A DNA stretch of 40,665 bases from a virus. Its lineage: Duplodnaviria; Heunggongvirae; Uroviricota; Caudoviricetes. The notes below the pieces were generated by a model. It ran no database searches, was not told the DNA's origin, and saw only the letters and a list, made by a program, of their open reading frames with translations. Position numbers and translations under genes: made by a program. This document shows, one piece after another, positions 1 through 40,665 of this stretch. The number at the start of each line of letters is the position of its first letter. Within the stretch, counting starts at the first letter, position 1. The stretch lies in IMG/VR virus record IMGVR_UViG_2687453300_000007. One strand, written 5' to 3'.

Positions 1-993
1 CTAATCGATGGACAGTTTATGGACACTTTCAGCCAGCGGATTAAAGTTGATCGCGTCCAGTAAAAAGTCCGGCGAAAAATGAGCGTACGTCATTGTTTGC
101 TGAATCGTTGCGTGCCCCAGGATTCGTTGCAACGTAACAATATTTCCGCCATTCATCATAAAGTGTGTGGCAAATGTATGACGCATGACATGCGTAGCCT
201 GCCCCTTCGGCAAATCCGGTTTCACCTCCTGAAGAATCTCCCGGAACTTCAGATAATCAACCTGATACAATAACCCCGTTCGACGGGTTTTAATCAGAGG
301 CACGACCGAATCCGCCACAGGAACCGAACGGGATTTTCCGTTTTTGGTGTTAAAGAACGTCACCCGGTTGCCAACGATATGCTCTCCACGTAGTTCCGAT
401 GCTTCACTCCATCGGGCACCAGTAGAAAGACACAGAATGGCAACACGACGCACATCACCCTCCAGTCGCTCAAGAAGCCGTTCAATCTCATCATCAGAAA
501 GAAAGGCCATCTCTGTGTTCTGAACTTTCAGTTTTCGTATACCGCGTACAGGGTTCGCGTTGTGAAAGACCTCAGCTTCAATCAGCACCGTGAACATGGT
601 AGACAGTACGCATAAGTCACGATTAATACTGGACGGCATTAATCCGGCCTGTAATTTCTCTGACCGATATTCAAGCATAAATTTTCGCGTCATCTGACTG
701 GCGCGAGGATCTCCCATTTCACGAACAACCTTCCCTAGCCTAACCCTGTAGCTATCCCCGTAAGCCTGATTACGCCCATCAAGCATCCACCACGCATCAA
801 GCAGCTCTGATAATCGCCGCTGATCAGCTGGCTTAGCCTGCCATGGCTTGTCATGAAAGTTCTGTAACACATACTTCTCAAACTCCTGAGCCTTTGATTT
901 CAGGGCAAAGATTTTTCGAATCCGCTTTCCTTCCGCCCCCTGCGGTCTGACATCGACCTGATAACGTCCGTCTTTGAGTTGCTTAATCGACAT
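1..993 (-). CDS. int: Tyrosine integrase (P2 Int-like)
   Basis: 330-aa minus-strand ORF with the C-terminal R...HxxR...Y signature region of tyrosine recombinases (…VMRHTFATHF…LGHATIQQTMTYAHF…). Start placed at ATG 993, preceded by GGAGGGG SD; stop TAG at 1..3. Confidence 0.9.
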   Translation of the reverse strand: MSIKQLKDGRYQVDVRPQGAEGKRIRKIFALKSKAQEFEKYVLQNFHDKPWQAKPADQRRLSELLDAWWMLDGRNQAYGDSYRVRLGKVVREMGDPRASQMTRKFMLEYRSEKLQAGLMPSSINRDLCVLSTMFTVLIEAEVFHNANPVRGIRKLKVQNTEMAFLSDDEIERLLERLEGDVRRVAILCLSTGARWSEASELRGEHIVGNRVTFFNTKNGKSRSVPVADSVVPLIKTRRTGLLYQVDYLKFREILQEVKPDLPKGQATHVMRHTFATHFMMNGGNIVTLQRILGHATIQQTMTYAHFSPDFLLDAINFNPLAESVHKLSID

Positions 994-8982: not shown

Positions 8983-9942
8983 ATGAAAATTTGTATCGAC
9001 GACGGCTCCACCAACATCAAGCTGGCATGGACTGAGAATGGCGAACGCCGCAACGCCATCAGCCCGAACAGCTTCAAGTCGGAATGGTCTGCGCCGTTCG
9101 GTGGCATGCAGCCCGCGAACTACATGCTTGATGGCGTGCGCTATGGTTTTGATCCGGTTAGCGATCGCTTTGTCCAGACGACCGACACGCAATACCAGTA
9201 CAGCGATGTGAATGTAATCGCCATTCATCACGCGCTGGTCAAATCAGGCATCACGCCACAGGAGGTGGATGTGGTTGTCACCCTGCCACTGAGCGAGTAT
9301 TTCGACACAAACGCACAGCCGGACATGGCCAACATCAACCGCAAAAAAGCGAACGTTATGCGCCCGGTGGAATACCAGAACGGCGAAGCATTCACTATCC
9401 GTAACGTGCGGGTTATGCCTGAATCCATTCCGGCTGGCTTTAAAGCACTGGCTGACATGAGTCCGTTTGAATCCCTGCTGATTGTGGATTTAGGCGGAAC
9501 CACGCTGGATGTGGCAAAGGTTCAAGGGCAACTGGCAGGTATCAGCCAGGTGTTTTGCGATCCACACGTAGGCGTTTCCCTGATGGCCGATGCCGTACTG
9601 TCGGTGATGGCCACTAACGGTATGCGCACCAGTCACCACATCGCCAATACCATTATCGAACATCGCCATGATGAAGCCTGGCTGCGCCAGCACATCCACA
9701 ATGACGCGCATTACGCCAGCCTGATGGCGGTTATTCGTGAAAAGGAAGAAACACTGAAACAACGCGTGATCCGCGCGCTGGCGGTTTTTTCGGGTTACGG
9801 GCGGGTGATGGTTGTCGGTGGAGGGGCGGAGATTGTGGCACCCGCTATCCGCGAAGTCTGCGGAGTTAATGCGACTTTCATCGCGGACGGGGTGCCACAG
9901 TTTGCTCTGGTTAATGGGCTGTACGCAATGGACAAGGAGTAA
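8983..9942 (+). CDS. parM: ParM/StbA-like actin-type segregation ATPase
   Basis: N-terminus MKICIDDGSTNIKLAW…ISPNSFK…YSDVNVIAIHHAL closely parallels plasmid R1 ParM as I recall it (MLVFIDDGSTNIKLQW…ISPNSFK…YSDVNVVAVHHAL). Also has the DxGGxT phosphate motif (IVDLGGTTLD). Confidence 0.8.
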   Translation: MKICIDDGSTNIKLAWTENGERRNAISPNSFKSEWSAPFGGMQPANYMLDGVRYGFDPVSDRFVQTTDTQYQYSDVNVIAIHHALVKSGITPQEVDVVVTLPLSEYFDTNAQPDMANINRKKANVMRPVEYQNGEAFTIRNVRVMPESIPAGFKALADMSPFESLLIVDLGGTTLDVAKVQGQLAGISQVFCDPHVGVSLMADAVLSVMATNGMRTSHHIANTIIEHRHDEAWLRQHIHNDAHYASLMAVIREKEETLKQRVIRALAVFSGYGRVMVVGGGAEIVAPAIREVCGVNATFIADGVPQFALVNGLYAMDKE

Positions 9943-9946
9943 ACCA

Positions 9947-10261
9947 ATGACGACACCAACCAGACGGATAAGTTTCTATCTGAAGCCCGCCGCCGTCAAG
10001 AGTGAACAGGAGGCGTGCAATTACCTCGATAGCCTGCCAGCCTCCGAACGCAGCCGCGCGCAACGCGCGGCCTTTCTGGCTGGGCTAGCGCTCATAAAGC
10101 GCAACCCAGCATTTGCCTACTGGATGGCCGAATGGCCAGAGGACAACCTCCCCTTCAATACCGTTAGCATCAAGGAAACATACCAGGATAATCAGCCTAG
10201 CGGAGTTGAATGCAATTTTTATAAAATAAAAAAGAATATTCAGACCTTATTCCCAGAATAA
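9947..10261 (+). CDS. parR: ParR-like centromere-binding protein (putative)
   Basis: ATG 9947 with AAGGAG SD 7 nt upstream, 5 bp after the parM stop. Segment RRISFYLKP…YLDSLPASERSRAQRAAFLAGLAL resembles the RHH N-terminus of R1 ParR (…LDSIPQGERSRLNRAALTAGLAL…). Confidence 0.65.
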   Translation: MTTPTRRISFYLKPAAVKSEQEACNYLDSLPASERSRAQRAAFLAGLALIKRNPAFAYWMAEWPEDNLPFNTVSIKETYQDNQPSGVECNFYKIKKNIQTLFPE

Positions 10262-10344: not shown

Positions 10345-11187
10345 TCATGATGAAATTGCCGAAGTTTTTTTATCGTGCTGAAGTACCGCAAATGCCATTA
10401 AAACCTCAAGAGAATAGCGGCGATAATACTTAACAAAACCATAATAAAATACTCGGGATGCAGCAATACAAAACAAGAGAAGAAAACAAAAAGGTAACAG
10501 TCTGATATTTATATCTATTAAAAAGGATAGAAGGAGCAGGAACATAAGCAACCAGACTGAAGCGAGAAAAACAAATGTAATGTTTCTACAAAAACCATAC
10601 AAAGCAACATAGTTTTGCATTTTCACCTGATGATTTTTAGAATGTTCATACACATAATGATAAGCAAGGCGAAAAAGATCGCCCCTCAAGCCCTTACGTC
10701 GATATAGCGTAGATACAGAAAAAACATTTATATAACCATCTCGTATTTGCGGCCAAAAGACTTTAATAAGTATAGAATGCAGTGTGGTTTTATGATGTTC
10801 TGCTTTATCAAAAGCTGATACAGGAAATAAAAAAACTCCACGAATAAAATTAACTATACTGAACTTAGTATTATGTCGTTTTATTTTCAGGGAGCTTCTT
10901 TTAGAAAACAGATAAATTGAAGGATACCCAAGTTTACTGTTCATGTATTTTTCAATTAAACAGGATGATAGAATAGATATGAAGTGACCTGAAATATATG
11001 ATAGAACGATTAATACCACATATATAAATACACTTATTATTTCTTTATATTTCAGGATATGGTTAAGAATACCTTCTATATAAACAGGGTTAATTTCAAT
11101 AGAAAACAAAAAAAGGATAAACAGGAATAACCCACCTGGAATTAGATAGCCCAAAAAGTCATAAAATGAAAACGGATTCTGTGTCAC
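10345..11187 (-). CDS. Hypothetical polytopic membrane protein (280 aa, about 4 TM)
   Basis: GTG start at 11187 with strong SD (AGGGGGAAG). Two N-terminal and two C-terminal hydrophobic helices flank a soluble stretch of about 125 aa. AT-rich with atypical codon usage. No family recognised. Confidence 0.6.
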   Translation of the reverse strand: MTQNPFSFYDFLGYLIPGGLFLFILFLFSIEINPVYIEGILNHILKYKEIISVFIYVVLIVLSYISGHFISILSSCLIEKYMNSKLGYPSIYLFSKRSSLKIKRHNTKFSIVNFIRGVFLFPVSAFDKAEHHKTTLHSILIKVFWPQIRDGYINVFSVSTLYRRKGLRGDLFRLAYHYVYEHSKNHQVKMQNYVALYGFCRNITFVFLASVWLLMFLLLLSFLIDINIRLLPFCFLLLFCIAASRVFYYGFVKYYRRYSLEVLMAFAVLQHDKKTSAISS

Positions 11188-11226
11188 ACTTCCCCCTGTG
11201 TTACTTGTAAATTAAAGGGTAAAACA

Positions 11227-11724
11227 TTATTTGTTTTTCCGTAAAGGATTAGCTTTCCATCTTCTTACTAACCATTCGAATTCTTGATATGTAGTATCCG
11301 AATTAATGCTTTCTCTGATTGCTTTAATTAATGGCTCGGCAATATCATATGTCTCTACAACTGTTGTGTAAGATGTTCTTTTTATCATTTTTTCATCATA
11401 AATACCTTCACGAATACTTACAGCAACTCGCTCGTAAAAATTTAAAATATATTGAAATTTTCGACGCTCGGCCATTTCTTCATCTGTTATTATGCAACCA
11501 TCACAAGGAAAAACATAAGAACGAAATGATTTGCCTGAACGATGCACTTGTTTCAGGGTATGCAATGACTCTATATATTGCATATCTTGCCGACTCTCAA
11601 AAAGAAAGTTGGCCGTTTGAGTTTTTTTTGCGGTACGCACATTGTAGATAATGGTTCCAATGGCAACCAAAACGCCAAGCAGAACAATAGCATTGCTGAT
11701 GATTTGTAGTGTTATTGGGTTCAT
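11227..11724 (-). CDS. Hypothetical single-pass membrane protein (165 aa)
   Basis: N-terminal TM helix (ITLQIISNAIVLLGVLVAIGTIIY) followed by a soluble domain of about 135 aa. Lies 39 bp upstream of the 280-aa gene on the same strand. AT-rich. Confidence 0.6.
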   Translation of the reverse strand: MNPITLQIISNAIVLLGVLVAIGTIIYNVRTAKKTQTANFLFESRQDMQYIESLHTLKQVHRSGKSFRSYVFPCDGCIITDEEMAERRKFQYILNFYERVAVSIREGIYDEKMIKRTSYTTVVETYDIAEPLIKAIRESINSDTTYQEFEWLVRRWKANPLRKNK

Positions 11725-28611: not shown

Positions 28612-28640
28612 AGGCCCGATAACGGGCCTTAATTTTTATT
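28612..28640 (+). terminator. Intrinsic terminator between G and G'
   Basis: Stem AAGGCCCG-ATAA-CGGGCCTT followed by AATTTTTATT. Confidence 0.55.
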
Positions 28641-29163
28641 CAGGCTTTTGTGGCCATTCAGGATTTGCCGTATCCACACGGTTGACCAGAACACTGTAGC
28701 GTTCCCATGCTTCCAGTCGTGTGCGTTCCTCGTCTGTTGCCATATTCAGCCTGACAGCGCGTTCCAGCGGCTGGATGACTGATTCAGCTTCGGAAAGCAA
28801 TGCGGCCTTTTGTGATTCGGCCTGTTGTTGCTGTTCGTCAGCCGTATAAATCCGTTTAACCACAGCTCCGTCCTTAAACATCCACTTACCGGAATCATCG
28901 GTCCGACGATTGGCCGTTATATCGGGAACCTCGACGACGCTAAAACCTTCGGGATTAAGCGTGGAGGCATCTCTGGTGATGGCGACAATAATATTATTTT
29001 CATCGTAAACAATCTTTATGGTGTCTGGCTGAAAGTTTTTCACTTCCTCATACCAGTTTTTTCCGTCCTCAGAGTAAAGCCAGATAACTCCGTGTTTCTT
29101 TGTTAACTCATACTGTTCCAGTGTTTTAGCATTACCCGCTTTTATGTTCTTTAAGTGCATCAT
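28636..29163 (-). CDS. Alternative tail fibre assembly chaperone (G')
   Basis: 175 aa on the minus strand with the same conserved N-terminus ([22 protein letters not shown]…) and a divergent C-terminus. Confidence 0.8.
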
Positions 29164-29697
29164 ATTAAACGCTCGCTACATTATACCAGGTGCCATTTAT
29201 ATACTTTTGAACGGGTCTGTAATAAACACCCGCTATATTATCGGCAGAGTTAGACCCTGTATCCTGAACATTAATACCAGACAATACATGACCTGAAGGG
29301 CACTGGAAATTCCATGTTCGCCAGTTGTTCACTCCATAATATTGCTGTGAACCAAGTCGAACATCTTTCACATAACGGGAATCAAAGTTACCGTAATCCG
29401 AGGGATTAACACGCCCCGTAATATTTATGGTCTTATTACTTTGAATGCTTCCGGGAACAAAGCGCATAACATGGACGTAATTAGCATAAACATCCAGATT
29501 ACCATCGCCATTTTGTTTAAAGCCCGTGTCATTATCACCCAATACAATCGAATTACCGCCAAGAGCACTGGATGTTCCGATACCCAGTGCACCATTCAGT
29601 TGACCACCAGATAACGGCAGTGCACCAACATCTCCTGCTGAAGGTTTTCTGGTGGTGGTGTAAAATTCGGACCAGTCGGCTTCAAAACCATAACCAT

Positions 29698-29706
29698 CAC
29701 GGGCTG
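29698..29706. repeat. IS1 target-site duplication (CACGGGCTG); partner copy at 30475..30483
   Basis: Identical 9-bp direct repeats immediately flank the 768-bp element. Confidence 0.9.
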
Positions 29707-29721
29707 GGTAATGACTCCAAC

Positions 29722-30225
29722 TTATTGATAGTGTTTTATGTTCAGATAATGCCCGATGACTTTGTCATGCAGCTCCACCGATTTTGAGAACGACAGCGAC
29801 TTCCGTCCCAGCCGTGCCAGGTGCTGCCTCAGATTCAGGTTATGCCGCTCAATTCGCTGCGTATATCGCTTGCTGATTACGTGCAGCTTTCCCTTCAGGC
29901 GGGATTCATACAGCGGCCAGCCATCCGTCATCCATATCACCACGTCAAAGGGTGACAGCAGGCTCATAAGACGCCCCAGCGTCGCCATAGTGCGTTCACC
30001 GAATACGTGCGCAACAACCGTCTTCCGGAGCCTGTCATACGCGTAAAACAGCCAGCGCTGGCGCGATTTAGCCCCGACATAGCCCCACTGTTCGTCCATT
30101 TCCGCGCAGACGATGACGTCACTGCCCGGCTGTATGCGCGAGGTTACCGACTGCGGCCTGAGTTTTTTAAGTGACGTAAAATCGTGTTGAGGCCAACGCC
30201 CATAATGCGGGCTGTTGCCCGGCAT
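29722..30225 (-). CDS. insB: IS1 transposase InsB
   Basis: 167-aa ORF matching IS1 InsB (…[38 protein letters not shown]…). Confidence 0.9.
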
Positions 30226-30419
30226 CCAACGCCATTCATGGCCATATCAATGATTTTCTGGTGCGTACCGGGTTGAGAAGCGGTGTAAGTGAACTGCAGT
30301 TGCCATGTTTTACGACAGTGAGAGCAGAGATAGCGCTGATGTCCGGCGGTGCTTTTGCCGTTACGCACCACCCCGTCAGTAGCTGAACAGGAGGGACAGC
30401 TGATAGAAACAGAAGCCAC
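30144..30419 (-). CDS. insA: IS1 InsA
   Basis: 91-aa [46 protein letters not shown]…, the zinc-finger/HTH InsA. Confidence 0.9.
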
Positions 30420-30874
30420 TGGAGCACCTCAAAAACACCATCATACACTAAATCAGTAAGTTGGCAGCATCACCCACGGGCTGAACGATAAAAAATACCG
30501 CCATTTTTATAATTAATCCGAAACTGAGCTGCAGGACAACTTCCGTCTCCCATATAAAAATGAATAATTAACGTTGATGCACCACCAATATTTGCGTTAT
30601 AGGCTCCGCTACTCCAGTTCCATCCAACTGCTTTATCATTCGCAACGGTGCTTCCTGTTTTCCCTAAGGCAAACGCACCAACATGACTTGCTTTTAATGT
30701 GATATCGGAGGAACCATCAAAAGCCACATTGCTTATTTTCCTGGCAGTTTTTAATTTTGCAGCTGTAGAAGCATTGCCGGATAGTTCACCAGAAAGGCCA
30801 CCGCTGAATGTTTGTCGATTAGTCCAGGTATTCGCTGTACTGAGTAACGGTATTTTCTCCCCGCTTGTGCCGAG

Positions 30875-30900
30875 TTCTCGTAAACCGAGGTTTTAAATAA
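30875..30900. promoter_or_regulatory. hix/gix-like inversion crossover site (right)
   Basis: TTCTCGTAAACC-GA-GGTTTTAAATAA, in inverted orientation relative to 27350..27375 with a complementary core dinucleotide. About 55 bp upstream of the invertase start. Confidence 0.75.
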
Positions 30901-30954
30901 TGGCCGTTTCTGGCCTGCATGGCATGATTTGCGCTTTTGGACGGGAGATTCAGT

Positions 30955-31554
30955 GTGCTGATTGGCTATGTAAGGGTATCAACAAATGACCAGAATACAG
31001 ACCTGCAACGAAACGCTCTTGTTTGTGCAGGATGTGAACAAATATTTGAAGATAAATTAAGCGGGACAAAGACAGACCGACCGGGATTAAAACGCGCTTT
31101 AAAGCGCCTTCAAAAAGGTGACACGCTGGTTGTCTGGAAACTGGATCGCCTCGGGCGAAGCATGAAACATCTGATTTCTCTCGTCGGGGAACTACGGGAG
31201 CGAGGGATTAATTTTCGCAGTCTGACCGACAGCATAGACACATCTTCTCCAATGGGGCGTTTTTTCTTCCACGTGATGGGTGCCCTGGCTGAAATGGAAC
31301 GTGAATTAATTGTTGAACGTACACTGGCCGGGCTGGCGGCAGCGCGCGCAAGGGGGCGCACAGGCGGACGTCGACCGAAGCTGACAAAAGAACAGCATGA
31401 GCAAATAGCAAGGCTAATCAAAAACGGGCACGACAGAAAACAACTGGCAATAATTTACGGCATTGGCACATCGACGATTTATCGTTATCACCCTGTAGGC
31501 GATATACAGACTGAAGAAACAACCGGGCAGACTCAGGAAAATGAAAACCGCTAA
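30955..31554 (+). CDS. Serine DNA invertase (Gin/Hin/Pin family)
   Basis: GTG 30955 start with GGGAG SD. (M)LIGYVRVSTNDQNTDLQRNAL…LVVWKLDRLGRSM…GINFRSLTDSIDTSSPMGRFFFHVMGALAEMERELIVERT… closely resembles the e14 Pin / Mu Gin family, with a C-terminal HTH. Confidence 0.9.
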   Translation: MLIGYVRVSTNDQNTDLQRNALVCAGCEQIFEDKLSGTKTDRPGLKRALKRLQKGDTLVVWKLDRLGRSMKHLISLVGELRERGINFRSLTDSIDTSSPMGRFFFHVMGALAEMERELIVERTLAGLAAARARGRTGGRRPKLTKEQHEQIARLIKNGHDRKQLAIIYGIGTSTIYRYHPVGDIQTEETTGQTQENENR

Positions 31555-38474: not shown

Positions 38475-38735
38475 ATGTTCCGTTGTCCGCTTTGTGGCGC
38501 ATCTGCCCGTATCCGCACCAGTCGTCCGGAAAATGATTCAAACACCGTGCGGCAAAAGTATTACCAGTGTAACAATCTGGAATGCGGCGTATGCTTCTCA
38601 ACACTGGAAGCTTTCCATAAATTCACATCAAAACACGCCTCCGGCGTTCACTCTTCAGAAGGTATCCCGTGGCATGATCTGCCAGCTTCACACAGGGGAA
38701 ACAATCAGATGAGTTTGCCTTTATCTCAGAATTAA
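38475..38735 (+). CDS. ogr: Late gene activator, Ogr/Delta zinc-finger family
   Basis: MFRCPLCGASARIRTSR…YYQCNNLECGVCF gives C-x2-C-x22-C-x4-C, as in P2 Ogr (MFHCPLC…). Confidence 0.85.
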   Translation: MFRCPLCGASARIRTSRPENDSNTVRQKYYQCNNLECGVCFSTLEAFHKFTSKHASGVHSSEGIPWHDLPASHRGNNQMSLPLSQN

Positions 38736-38823
38736 CAGGCAGAATTGCCGGAGTAACAAAAAAGCGATAGATTACGTGCGGGTGCCTTTCGGCTGATGGT
38801 CGGAGGGAATACCCGAAGGCCAG

Positions 38824-39009
38824 ATGTGGAAAGGCCCCGAGTCAACTTTAACGTTAACCCGAGGCCCTAACCATCTACCCTCAGCAAGTGATAGGTTAGC
38901 GCCTCCCCGAAAAAGGAGCAAGCGCTATGTCGCAAAAATCGCTTACGGCCATCACATTCTGCGTGACGGCAATCCTCATCATCTGGATGCTGCACGGTTC
39001 GCTGTGTGA
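38824..39009 (+). CDS. Possible mok-like overlapping reading frame
   Basis: 61-aa ORF starting upstream of and overlapping the hok-like ORF in another frame, as in hok/mok/sok loci. Composition is weakly protein-like. Confidence 0.25.
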   Translation: MWKGPESTLTLTRGPNHLPSASDRLAPPRKRSKRYVAKIAYGHHILRDGNPHHLDAARFAV

Positions 39010-39067
39010 AATACGGATGAGTTTCTGGGGAGCGGAGTTTGCGGCGTTCTTACAGTGTAAGCAGTAA
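38927..39067 (+). CDS. Hok/Gef-family type I toxin (46 aa), putative
   Basis: ATG 38927 with AAGGAG SD 8 nt upstream. MSQKSLTAITFCVTAILIIWMLHGSLCEIRMSFWGAEFAAFLQCKQ: N-terminal TM helix followed by the SLCE(I/L) … AAF(L) pattern seen in Hok/Gef toxins. Below the ORF-track size cutoff. Confidence 0.55.
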   Translation: MSQKSLTAITFCVTAILIIWMLHGSLCEIRMSFWGAEFAAFLQCKQ

Positions 39068-39165
39068 GGAAACCGCGACGGGGAAGGCAACTTCCCCGTC
39101 AATCGGTTGCCAGGGTAAAGGTCGAAAAGGCACCCTATTTCCAGTTGACGTGAACAACAAGCCCG

Positions 39166-39198
39166 CAGCGTAAAAACTGCGGGTTTTCTTTTTGGTTC
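39166..39198 (+). terminator. Intrinsic terminator downstream of the hok-like ORF
   Basis: Stem CCCGCAGCG-TAAAAA-CTGCGGG followed by TTTTCTTTTT. Confidence 0.6.
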
Positions 39199-39223
39199 CC
39201 TCACTCATGAGGACACCAAAAAA

Positions 39224-39255
39224 CAAAGCCCACAGCATAGAAGCTGTGGGCTTTT
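39224..39255. terminator. Bidirectional intrinsic terminator
   Basis: Stem AAAGCCCACAGC-ATAGAA-GCTGTGGGCTTT with T-runs on both strands (minus strand TTGTTTTTTGG). Probable serS terminator. Confidence 0.55.
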
Positions 39256-39372
39256 TGCATTCAAAGATGGACGTTATATGGACACTTAAAAATAAAATCC
39301 ATTTATTTTCAAATGATTAAACCTCTACTTAAAGCGCCCGCAGGCGCTTTTTAGATTCAGAAAAATTGGGTA

Positions 39373-40665
<1,293 letters not shown>

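Follow-up and report, generated by a model that had tools for sequence, protein, structure and literature searches.

The window, a 40,665-nucleotide stretch of tailed-phage DNA (Caudoviricetes; IMG/VR record IMGVR_UViG_2687453300_000007) given as one strand from 5' to 3', ends in the host gene serS. A small open reading frame lies between serS and the phage gene ogr, and a reading from sequence alone had proposed that it encodes a Hok/Gef-type toxin at a prophage-host junction. Its neighbours confirm this location. The protein-coding features are the following.

38475..38735: ogr, matching Pfam Ogr_Delta at 5e-14
38824..39009, plus strand: leader ORF of 61 codons, overlapping the hok start in the -1 frame
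38927..39067, plus strand: hok, encoding the 46-aa Hok/Gef toxin MSQKSLTAITFCVTAILIIWMLHGSLCEIRMSFWGAEFAAFLQCKQ (Pfam PF01848, PHROG 251, RefSeq WP_000078916.1)
39373..40665, minus strand: serS, from the ORF list and annotation

The 46-aa reading frame starts 8 nt downstream of a strong Shine-Dalgarno sequence (AAGGAG, 38913-38918), as had been noted. Profile alignment bears out the proposed family: HOK_GEF (PF01848) matches the peptide with 29.9 bits at a gathering score of 22 (E 4e-7), aligning residues 7-44 with model positions 5-42, that is 38 of 42 positions, and PHROG 251 'MokW-like host killing' matches at E 1e-22. In RefSeq, the same peptide is annotated as 'Hok/Gef family protein' (WP_000078916.1). 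The peptide has an N-terminal hydrophobic helix and all seven residues that are more than 80% conserved in Hok according to a preprint logo and row 1621 of the published alignment, namely M1, C12, T14, L26, C27, E28 and E37, which correspond to M1, C16, T18, L30, C31, E32 and E41 in R1 numbering; the residue at position 48 of the R1 numbering is a cysteine (C44). The family assignment is unambiguous. Table S2 of the preprint (bioRxiv 10.1101/2025.08.07.668861, 2026) contains the exact peptide as entry 72_1621 among 45 Hok sequences tested. There, 42 of the 45 are given as toxic and the three non-toxic peptides bear other ids, so that the toxicity of the exact 46-aa peptide is taken from these literature reports.

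The proposed mok-like frame upstream of hok exists in the window, yet its overlap is not a conserved property. Of 50 unique IMG/VR loci, 8 have a leader frame that reads into hok, as do 3 of 9 aligned homologues, and 26 of 47 loci have no ORF with a start codon that crosses the hok ATG. Among homologues, the leader ORF ranges from 6 to 79 codons, with natural forms of 8, 19 and 61 codons among them, while its ATG, the upstream GAAGG (SD) and the codons MWKGP are invariant. The window and 933W differ by a 1-nt indel in a loop. Neither Pfam nor PHROG has a family that matches the product of the leader ORF, and a collection of 15 billion proteins lacks the exact sequence; we therefore reject the leader ORF as a protein. 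Although the window itself has the overlap, we find no conserved overlapping mok frame that would couple its translation to hok. In R1, the overlapping mok frame is essential. The translational-coupling step may therefore differ from R1.

Around these frames, we assign promoters and RNA elements as follows.

38745..38773, plus strand: predicted hok promoter, -35 TTGCCG (38745-50), 17-nt spacer, -10 TAGATT (38768-73)
38780..39193, plus strand: predicted full-length hok mRNA, about 360-410 nt, with a putative 5' end and its 3' end at the intrinsic terminator
38780..38794, plus strand: tac-like 5' element GGGUGCCUUUCGGCU, invariant across all homologues
38826..38838, plus strand: putative ucb-like element, the alternative tac partner after 3' truncation when refolded in silico
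38828..38921, minus strand: predicted sok gene, -35 TTGCTC (38921->38916), 17-nt spacer, -10 TAACCT (38898->38893)
~38886 to ~38828, minus strand: predicted Sok RNA, about 60 nt, with a 16-bp hairpin (38867->38833) and a UUUCC tail
39077..39100, plus strand: conserved 10-bp hairpin GACGGGGAAG/CTTCCCCGTC in the hok mRNA 3' region
39102-39117, plus strand: dcb-like element, pairing with the Sok-target region 38876-38892
39120-39135, plus strand: fbi-like element, pairing with tac
39159..39193, plus strand: intrinsic terminator, stem 39162-39183 followed by TTTTCTTTTT to 39193 (the scan gave 39159..39186)

The RNA fold supports the type I toxin-antitoxin reading. The segment 38780..39198 folds with a minimum free energy (MFE) of -172.6 kcal/mol, at z = -5.7 relative to shuffled sequences. 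Across 9 homologues, 92.7% of cells are paired compared to ~41% in slid controls, the former percentage being inflated because the scored structure was derived from the window's own sequence; 8 pairs change on both sides in the 9-homologue alignment, versus 0-4 in the slid controls. The Rfam family 'sok' (RF01794) matches 38780..38940 over its full length (model positions 1-157) with E 5e-8 and 42.8 bits, which is below the gathering threshold of 59 bits. The E-value and the full-length match indicate a divergent relative. Other Rfam matches, to miRNA, leader and sRNA families at 39150-39320, have E >= 0.01 and were disregarded as terminator look-alikes.

Pairing of the 5' and 3' ends of the mRNA, tac (38780-94) with fbi (39120-35), is present in both the MFE and the centroid fold. 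This helix (helix 1) comprises 15 pairs, of which 92.6% are paired in the 9 homologues; it has no changes on both sides because its 5' side is invariant. The GGCACCC core of the fbi pairing is found in 52 of 55 loci. In the helix of the dcb-like element (helix 5), three pairs change on both sides. The perfect 10-bp GC hairpin described earlier at 39079..39102 is present at 39077..39100 (helix 13), with two pairs exchanged on both sides (GC<->AU; AU<->CG/GC); it belongs to the interior of the hok mRNA 3' region and is no independent terminator. Similarly, the terminator that had been placed at 39166..39198 is real and lies slightly further upstream. It is kept in P88-like loci, where homology to the window stops at ~39193-39205, and is missing from the versions in Stx phages and phiSM. 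Homology with the Stx phages stops just beyond fbi, at ~39135-39141.

The Shine-Dalgarno sequence of hok (38913..38918) overlaps the -35 of sok and is sequestered by the upstream CCUCC at 38902-38906 (helices 6 and 7). With fbi removed in silico, tac is predicted to re-pair with 38826-38838, and the modelled unpaired probability of the leader AUG increases from 0.18 to 0.66, that of the Sok target from 0.28 to 0.53. The refolding suggests a ucb-like activation switch of the truncated mRNA.

A generic consensus promoter scan of 38600..39400 found no sigma-70 site at its threshold of 9/12, and we base the promoter proposals on positional conservation instead. The predicted hok promoter scores 8/12, and each hexamer of the candidate hok and sok promoters matches at only 3-4 of 6 positions. 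A gap of 6 nt separates the hok -10 from the predicted +1 at 38780. The layout TTGNNN-17/18-TANNNT, 6 nt upstream of GGGTGCC, recurs in 62 of 63 unique IMG/VR homologues and also in the 933W paralogue. For sok, the candidate layout TTGNNN-17/18-TAACCT is found in all 55 unique homologues, its hexamers being weak. In the same 55 of 55 homologues the minus-strand Sok hairpin exceeds its plus-strand mirror in stability; in the window, the Sok region folds with -35.5 kcal/mol on the minus and -18.1 on the plus strand. The upper stem of the Sok hairpin is swapped compensatorily between two variants, and no stretch of the locus varies more than 38868-38886, which would form the single-stranded 5' part of Sok.

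Downstream of the terminator, the following features define the end of the prophage.

39225..39254, minus strand: strong terminator-like hairpin facing serS, 12 bp then GTTTTTTGG, within the phage att arm
39266..39287, plus strand: probable integrase arm-type site, two ATGGAC repeats 11 bp apart
39331..39350, plus strand: attR core AAAGCGCCCGCAGGCGCTTT, 20 bp, identical to the serS terminator hairpin, from comparison of attL, attR and the empty site

It had been expected that the attR core lies between hok and serS, and comparison with attL and the empty site locates it there. An identical prophage has the 20-bp core AAAGCGCCCGCAGGCGCTTT at its attL, and the empty site contains it too; to the left of the core the lysogen and empty-site sequences diverge. 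The window holds a single copy; attL lies ~112 bp outside the window start. The hairpin at 39225..39254 may serve as a backstop to serS read-through, because integration leaves the serS terminator with a T-run of 3 instead of 7. The site at 39266..39287 has a twin at window positions 7-28, inside the 3' end of int; the pattern GATGGACNNTNTATGGACACTT is found twice, with 0 occurrences expected by chance. By analogy with the attP arms of P2-type phages, we consider it a probable integrase arm-type site.

This comparison also decides between phage cargo and a host gene. Among complete E. coli genomes, 5424 of 5426 match the query, with a coverage of at least 80% in only 293. Those sampled that lack the prophage match solely at the last 42 bp, 39331..39372, and in the empty site the dmsA-serS spacer stands in place of everything left of the core. 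A host-borne locus that merely adjoins the prophage end, for which nothing speaks except the position beside serS, would have to be present next to serS in such genomes, and it is not in those sampled. In addition, the module accompanies ogr to other integration sites and is contained in phage genome records such as P88 and phiSM, both described as temperate and active. We give the host-borne reading practically no credence and regard the host-gene interpretation as ruled out by the empty site, attL and attR. The module is phage cargo, since prophage-free E. coli have just 39331..39372 and the att comparison puts the core there: it lies inside an att-bounded element and moves with phage genes, as cargo of P2-family phages does.

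The closest relatives are P88, Chuche and phiSM (Xuanwuvirus, Peduoviridae). They share the gene order of the window, with the tail sheath on the minus strand followed by gpD, ogr and hok, and have 90-94% DNA identity to the window across the module; their ParM proteins are 95-100% identical in amino acid sequence to that of the window prophage. An inversion that splits gpD was considered for the minus-strand tail genes (31.6-37.2 kb) beside the plus-strand gpD and rejected, since relatives including P88 and Chuche are arranged alike; this arrangement is normal for the genus. In contrast to the window prophage, these phages use other integration sites, carry other cargo between hok and attP, and have another variant of the Sok stem and recognition sequence, the window's stem being of the Stx-phage type. 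The IS1 element of the window prophage is a further difference. The slot between ogr and attP is variable, with Com and a methyltransferase in Chuche and a TagO-like gene in phiSM. We find the ogr-hok pair in P88, Chuche, phiSM and prophages at the tRNA-Leu/pgsA site; it is conserved in P88-like phages integrated at other sites. The window prophage also encodes ParM/ParR, with parM/parR adjoining the replication gene. A literature search on Xuanwuvirus, P88 and ParM returned nothing on the function of hok or ParM in these phages.

Of 120 IMG/VR loci scanned, about half were too short to assess owing to a contig end. Among the 73 loci long enough, 62 have an intact Hok of 46-47 aa (50 unique sequences) with conservative substitutions, while 8 have no Hok ORF and 3 no leader ATG by the criteria of the script. 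Adjacency of hok to ogr is found in 39 of 64 loci. In one decayed prophage, the ogr-hok fragment persists alone, beside an IS3 and a group II intron.

A further close known system is hok/sok (parB) of plasmid R1, the paradigm of type I toxin-antitoxin modules. Common to both are a small Hok/Gef membrane toxin in which the C..T...LCE...E positions are conserved, an antisense RNA of ~60 nt that is encoded in cis, convergent and has its promoter at the hok SD, and the tac/fbi 5'-3' pairing, alternative tac partner and sequestered SD, the RNA features being predicted here. Differences are the length of the toxin (46 aa here, 52 aa in R1, about one third identical when aligned by eye), the carrier, which is an integrating P2-family phage rather than a plasmid, and the leader, in which only the start of a short ORF is conserved and not the long overlapping mok frame. 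Unlike in R1, fbi does not lie at the extreme 3' end but ~25-60 nt upstream of a separate intrinsic terminator, so that the mRNA processing path may differ.

Two published data sets touch on this locus. The catalogue of Escalera-Maurer et al. (bioRxiv 10.1101/2025.08.07.668861) contains Hok cluster 72 (entries 72_1621 and 72_1589), of which 72_1621 is identical to the window peptide. It treats coding sequences only, states that it did not resolve Mok, Sok and mRNA ends, and gives neither the placement between ogr and attP nor the serS att site. For hokW-sokW of the Stx2 phage Sp5/933W, likewise a prophage-borne hok/sok module, Takada et al. 2021 (PMC8621323) report experimental toxin and antitoxin activity that depends on RNase III and Hfq, as well as a halved number of released phages when hokW-sokW is deleted in Sp5. 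The 'MokW-like' labels suggest orthology, which we reject because the loci in 933W differ: tblastn with R1 Hok puts hokW/mokW at 58463-58615, whereas the window homologue lies at 45491-45865, beside lom and without annotation in that record. HokW, with 51 aa and 44% identity to R1 Hok (PMC8621323), is thus a distinct paralogue, and the experiments on hokW-sokW are not directly transferable because they concern a different locus.

Taken together, we interpret the locus as a hok/sok-type (type I) module that is complete and belongs to the cargo of a P88-like prophage (Xuanwuvirus, P2 family) integrated in the serS terminator; the module lies between ogr and the right att arm. We put the probability of this reading at roughly 0.88. 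The transcript ends, the processing, the instability of Sok and the biological role are what we infer beyond it. Following the paradigm of plasmid R1, the weak constitutive promoter at 38745-38773 would produce a stable hok mRNA of ~410 nt. In this RNA, tac locked to fbi would bury the start codon of the leader together with the Sok target and the SD of hok, precluding both translation and antisense binding. Slow 3' trimming would then take off fbi, tac would move to 38826-38838, and the leader would open. As long as the prophage is transcribed, a short-lived Sok of ~60 nt from the convergent promoter overlapping the hok SD would pair with the opened leader and direct the mRNA to decay. Once the supply of Sok ends, through loss of the element or shut-off of transcription, the activated mRNA would be translated, and the 46-aa Hok would enter the inner membrane, collapse the membrane potential and kill the cell.

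What such a module does for the phage can be weighed from its setting. It could act in prophage addiction, killing or arresting cells that lose the prophage by excision without re-integration, or that lose its right end, and thereby stabilising the element. This is a tentative possibility. It corresponds to the classical function of hok/sok on R1, as given in the background of PMC8621323. The module lies at the very end of the prophage, adjoining att, and the phage also carries ParM/ParR, the other stability locus of R1. The ogr-hok fragment that outlives the rest of one decayed prophage fits as well, but the survival of a remnant can be chance, and P2-type prophages seldom excise anyway. A doubtful option is abortive infection or superinfection exclusion, in which a lytic phage stops host transcription, Sok decays and Hok kills the cell before phage release. 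A defence role of hok/sok is implicated in the background of PMC8621323, prophages are about four-fold enriched in hok genes in the data of bioRxiv 10.1101/2025.08.07.668861, and the interval from ogr to attP takes up variable cargo in Chuche and phiSM. Against it, the prophage's other cargo ORFs, with the Hok peptide left out, have no significant PADLOC match, the best being a marginal Csx27 at 1e-5. We consider it rather unlikely that Hok aids lysis, with Sok dropping upon induction and Hok helping to permeabilise the membrane so that more phage is released; the effect on release demonstrated for Sp5 (PMC8621323) belongs to another paralogue at another position, and we see nothing that would tie the window's Sok promoter to P2-type late control or the SOS response.

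Two further readings concern the state of the element itself. Since P88-like phages carry both classical stability modules of R1, with hok/sok at the att end and parM/parR by the replication gene, they might live partly as a partitioned low-copy extrachromosomal element in which hok/sok is the post-segregational killer, which we judge improbable. In a lesser variant of this improbable reading, the Hok subfamily would have exchanged the mok overlap for a short leader ORF of variable length, with Sok control independent of mok. It is very improbable that the locus is an inactive relic, a hok copy in decay that is not expressed, comparable to the chromosomal hok loci that IS elements have disrupted in E. 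coli K-12. Decay would fit two observations, namely that in most relatives the mok-type overlapping frame is broken and that an IS1 is inserted elsewhere in the window's prophage, but the Hok frame is intact in most of the assessable IMG/VR loci, the RNA helices still pair with compensatory changes, both promoter-like layouts keep a fixed position, and the peptide is reported toxic (bioRxiv 10.1101/2025.08.07.668861).

As a prophage-borne Hok/Sok, the locus is an ordinary and already known one, its peptide being present in RefSeq, PHROGs and the preprint catalogue, and it matters little except for correct annotation. The increments of our analysis are the exact boundary between phage and host, with the att core coinciding with the serS terminator, a map of the RNA elements at base level, the finding that the characterised hokW-sokW is not orthologous, and the observation that this subfamily does not conserve the mok overlap, a result with a bearing on the transfer of the R1 model to other Hok clusters.

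The interval between ogr and serS holds a bona fide hok/sok-type type I toxin–antitoxin module. It belongs to the phage and borders the right att arm on its inner side. It is made up of, or bordered by, the following features.

38475..38735: ogr, Ogr/Delta zinc-finger protein
TTGCCG-17-TAGATT, 6 nt 5' of 38780, plus strand: predicted hok promoter
38824..39009, plus strand: leader ORF of 61 aa, in a frame other than that of hok
38867->38833, minus strand: predicted Sok hairpin, 16 bp, then UUUCC
TTGCTC 38921->38916, 17 nt, TAACCT 38898->38893, minus strand: predicted sok promoter
AAGGAG, 8 nt 5' of the hok ATG, plus strand: Shine–Dalgarno (SD) sequence, read from the sequence
38927..39067, plus strand: hok ORF, 46 aa, MSQKSLTAITFCVTAILIIWMLHGSLCEIRMSFWGAEFAAFLQCKQ
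39077..39100: 10-bp hairpin
39162-39183, T-run to 39193, plus strand: hok terminator
39254->39225, minus strand: strong terminator, located in the phage arm about 80 nt inward of the serS hairpin
7..28 (int 3' end) and 39266..39287 (right att arm), same orientation: twin 22-bp elements, GATGGAC-N5-ATGGACACTT
39331..39350: att core (attR), 20 bp, AAAGCGCCCGCAGGCGCTTT, one copy in the window, serS terminator stem-loop
39373..40665, minus strand: serS

The sequence-only reading had proposed a 46-aa Hok/Gef ORF with an SD sequence at this position between ogr and serS, and the profile comparison it called for bears this out. The peptide scores 29.9 bits against Pfam HOK_GEF (gathering score 22), matches PHROG 251 'MokW-like host killing' at E 1e-22 and is identical to RefSeq WP_000078916.1, labelled 'Hok/Gef family protein'. 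The overlapping upstream ORF, the 10-bp hairpin and the terminator are all found as well, 2–7 nt from the coordinates first proposed. With Rfam, the entire sok/hok-leader model aligns to 38780..38940 at E 5e-8; the 42.8 bits fall short of its gathering score of 59.

Whether hok is phage or host DNA was decided by comparison with prophage-free serS regions. Of 5,426 complete E. coli genomes queried by megablast with 38736..39372, 5,424 give a match, and in only 293 does it span at least 80% of the query. In the sampled prophage-free genomes, only the last 42 bases (39331..39372) are shared, and a hok locus beside serS, expected of a host gene, is absent from them. At the K-12-like empty site, the dmsA–serS spacer continues directly into AAAGCGCCCGCAGGCGCTTTTTAG... 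Strain 4/1-1 matches the window at 100% identity across its right junction; its left junction runs from host spacer through AAAGCGCCCGCAGGCGCTTT into phage DNA, with the int stop codon (window position 1) about 112 bp past AAAGCGCCCGCAGGCGCTTT. Because the empty site and both junctions share this 20-bp sequence, we assign it as the att core, which falls within the interval in which attR had been anticipated. By this sequence comparison, all DNA left of the core, hok included, is phage. Integration reduces the T-run after the serS hairpin, on the serS strand, from 7 to 3 and keeps the hairpin; the minus-strand terminator at 39254->39225 may be a backstop against serS read-through antisense into hok. 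The 22-bp elements each carry two ATGGAC repeats 11 bp apart, an arrangement with 0 occurrences expected by chance. By analogy with P2-type attP, they are probably integrase arm-type binding sites.

The fold of 38780..39198 has a free energy of -172.6 kcal/mol (z = -5.7). Its first 15 nt, the tac element, pair with 39120-39135, the 3' partner fbi, while the Sok-target region 38876-38892 pairs with a dcb-like segment at 39102-39117 and the hok SD with a CCUCC 5' of it. Projected onto nine aligned homologues, this structure, derived from the window's own sequence, leaves 92.7% of cells paired versus about 41% with slid partners. Eight pairs are changed on both sides, compared with 0–4 in slid controls; the long-range helix accounts for three of the eight and the hairpin 39077-39100 for two. 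When fbi is removed in silico, tac re-pairs with 38826-38838. The leader AUG and the Sok target open up, their unpaired probabilities going from 0.18 to 0.66 and from 0.28 to 0.53, respectively. The R1 activation switch is thus reproduced in the model. In silico, an R1-type mechanism is well supported for this module, the mok coupling step excepted.

On the antisense side, the Sok region folds with -35.5 kcal/mol on the minus strand versus -18.1 for its plus-strand mirror; the minus-strand hairpin is the more stable one in 55 of 55 unique homologues. C–A mismatches of the plus strand are G–U pairs on the minus strand, and the changes that distinguish the two Sok stem variants are compensatory. 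Along the aligned loci, variation peaks in the predicted single-stranded 5' part of Sok, as would be expected of a region that sets antisense specificity. For the sok-like promoter that was to be looked for, there is a candidate: its layout recurs in 55/55 loci, but the hexamers are weak and a generic promoter scan reported none. The predicted hok promoter, with its layout in 62/63 loci, is likewise a weak consensus match.

The mok-like ORF exists in the window, as proposed, but its overlap with hok is not conserved. The leader ATG (38824), its GAAGG and codons 1–5 (MWKGP) do not vary, whereas ORF length does: it ranges from 8 to 78 codons in the nine homologues, reaching hok in three, and the 61-codon form has just one T more in the Sok loop than the 8-codon form of 933W. 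We scanned 120 IMG/VR loci, about half of which ended too early at a contig edge; 73 were long enough to assess. The leader ORF overlaps hok in 8 of 50 unique sequences, and 26 of 47 loci have no ATG-, GTG- or TTG-started ORF across the hok ATG. Therefore, the overlapping mok frame that defines R1 hok/sok is not conserved across this Hok subfamily. Its part may be played by a short leader ORF, or Sok may trigger decay directly. Mok was left out of the survey of Escalera-Maurer et al., its prediction being explicitly judged ambiguous in that preprint (bioRxiv 10.1101/2025.08.07.668861).

The module is 90–94% identical in P88, Chuche, P884B11, phiSM, 500465-2 and PhiR44_2 (Xuanwuvirus, Peduoviridae) and about 83% identical in Stx phages such as 933W. 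P88 and phiSM are described as active temperate P2-like phages; P88 was recovered after a prophage had been induced chemically (PMC6456863). In P88-like genomes hok always follows ogr; the pair also occurs in prophages near the tRNA-Leu/Cys/Gly–pgsA cluster, and ogr adjoins hok in 39 of 64 usable IMG/VR loci collected via the invariant 20-mer GGGTGCCTTTCGGCTGATGG. Homology to P88-like loci stops at the hok terminator (about 39193-39205). Homology to Stx phages and phiSM ends just beyond 39135, so the transferable unit extends from promoter to fbi. Cargo between hok and attP differs: Chuche has Com and a methyltransferase, phiSM has a TagO-like gene, other relatives have small hypothetical genes, and the window has no cargo gene there. 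Its Sok stem-loop (38839..38861, alignment columns 104-125) is the Stx-phage variant in an otherwise P88-like locus. This sequence pattern suggests that hok loci of unrelated phages have recombined inside the antisense region. At the tRNA-Leu/pgsA site of E. coli MIN12 (locus L008, 2237..2962), a prophage remnant consists of ogr and the hok module only and lies between a truncated IS3 transposase and a group II intron; here the module has outlasted the rest of its phage.

Besides hokW/mokW, which is annotated and has been studied, Stx phages hold a second, distinct hok locus: a 46-aa paralogue beside lom that lacks annotation. In 933W, hokW (58463-58615) encodes 51 aa, and the lom-adjacent locus at 45491-45865 carries the 46-aa form without annotation. 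The latter, not hokW, is the true homologue of our locus. Since hokW-sokW of Sp5/933W, characterised by Takada et al. 2021 (PMC8621323), is another locus, those results serve as analogy only.

The same prophage carries further mobile and accessory DNA. A complete 768-bp IS1 (29707..30474) has exact terminal inverted repeats and a 9-bp target duplication, CACGGGCTG, at 29698-29706 and 30475-30483, between an alternative tail-fibre segment and an invertase gene. Strain 4/1-1 has a prophage that is identical except for being about 784 bp shorter, consistent with lack of this IS1. The serine invertase (Resolvase and HTH_7, 30937..31554) adjoins opposite-strand tail-fibre/assembly ORFs (28636..29542, minus), and 28636..31554 looks like a Gin/Cin-type invertible host-range segment with IS1 now interrupting nearby. 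In the gpA–portal gap, the position of the P2 tin/old hotspot, two genes (10345..11724, minus) encode a DUF4760 protein (11227..11724) and a 280-aa protein with only a weak PADLOC match to Csx27 (1e-5); they may be defence or exclusion cargo.

The survey reports hok as about four-fold enriched in prophages and lists the identical peptide as 72_1621, from a high-abundance cluster, among 45 experimentally tested Hok sequences. Toxicity was seen for 42 of them, and the remaining three bear other ids (bioRxiv 10.1101/2025.08.07.668861). An intact Hok is found in 62 of the 73 assessable IMG/VR loci (50 unique sequences); by our script criteria, 8 have no Hok ORF and 3 no leader ATG. That the module is an inactive relic is improbable. 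Prophage addiction leads the functional readings at a probability of about 0.3; abortive infection is a doubtful candidate, and help with lysis is unlikely.

One further locus bears on addiction and stability.

8983..10261, plus strand: ParM (StbA_N 2.7e-82, ParM C-terminal domain) and ParR/StbB-like protein (Plasmid_stab_B 1.9e-28), directly 3' of the gpA-like replication gene

In 14 phage records, which represent about 10 distinct P88-like phages, ParM is 95–100% identical. With ParM/ParR and hok/sok in one phage, both R1 stability loci are therefore carried. NZ_CP148288.1, a phage-sized 34,461-bp circle deposited as a non-mobilizable plasmid, contains in its first 3.1 kb the ogr–hok–Com–methyltransferase block that marks a Chuche-like Xuanwuvirus. 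The record represents an episomal form, or else phage DNA that had been excised and was assembled into a circle. Together with the ParM/ParR co-occurrence, it gives a small chance that these phages pass through a plasmid-like stage. Neither the type of module nor its sequence is new. Mild novelty is confined to the mok frame not being conserved and to the ParM/ParR co-occurrence taken together with the 34.5-kb circular 'plasmid' record.
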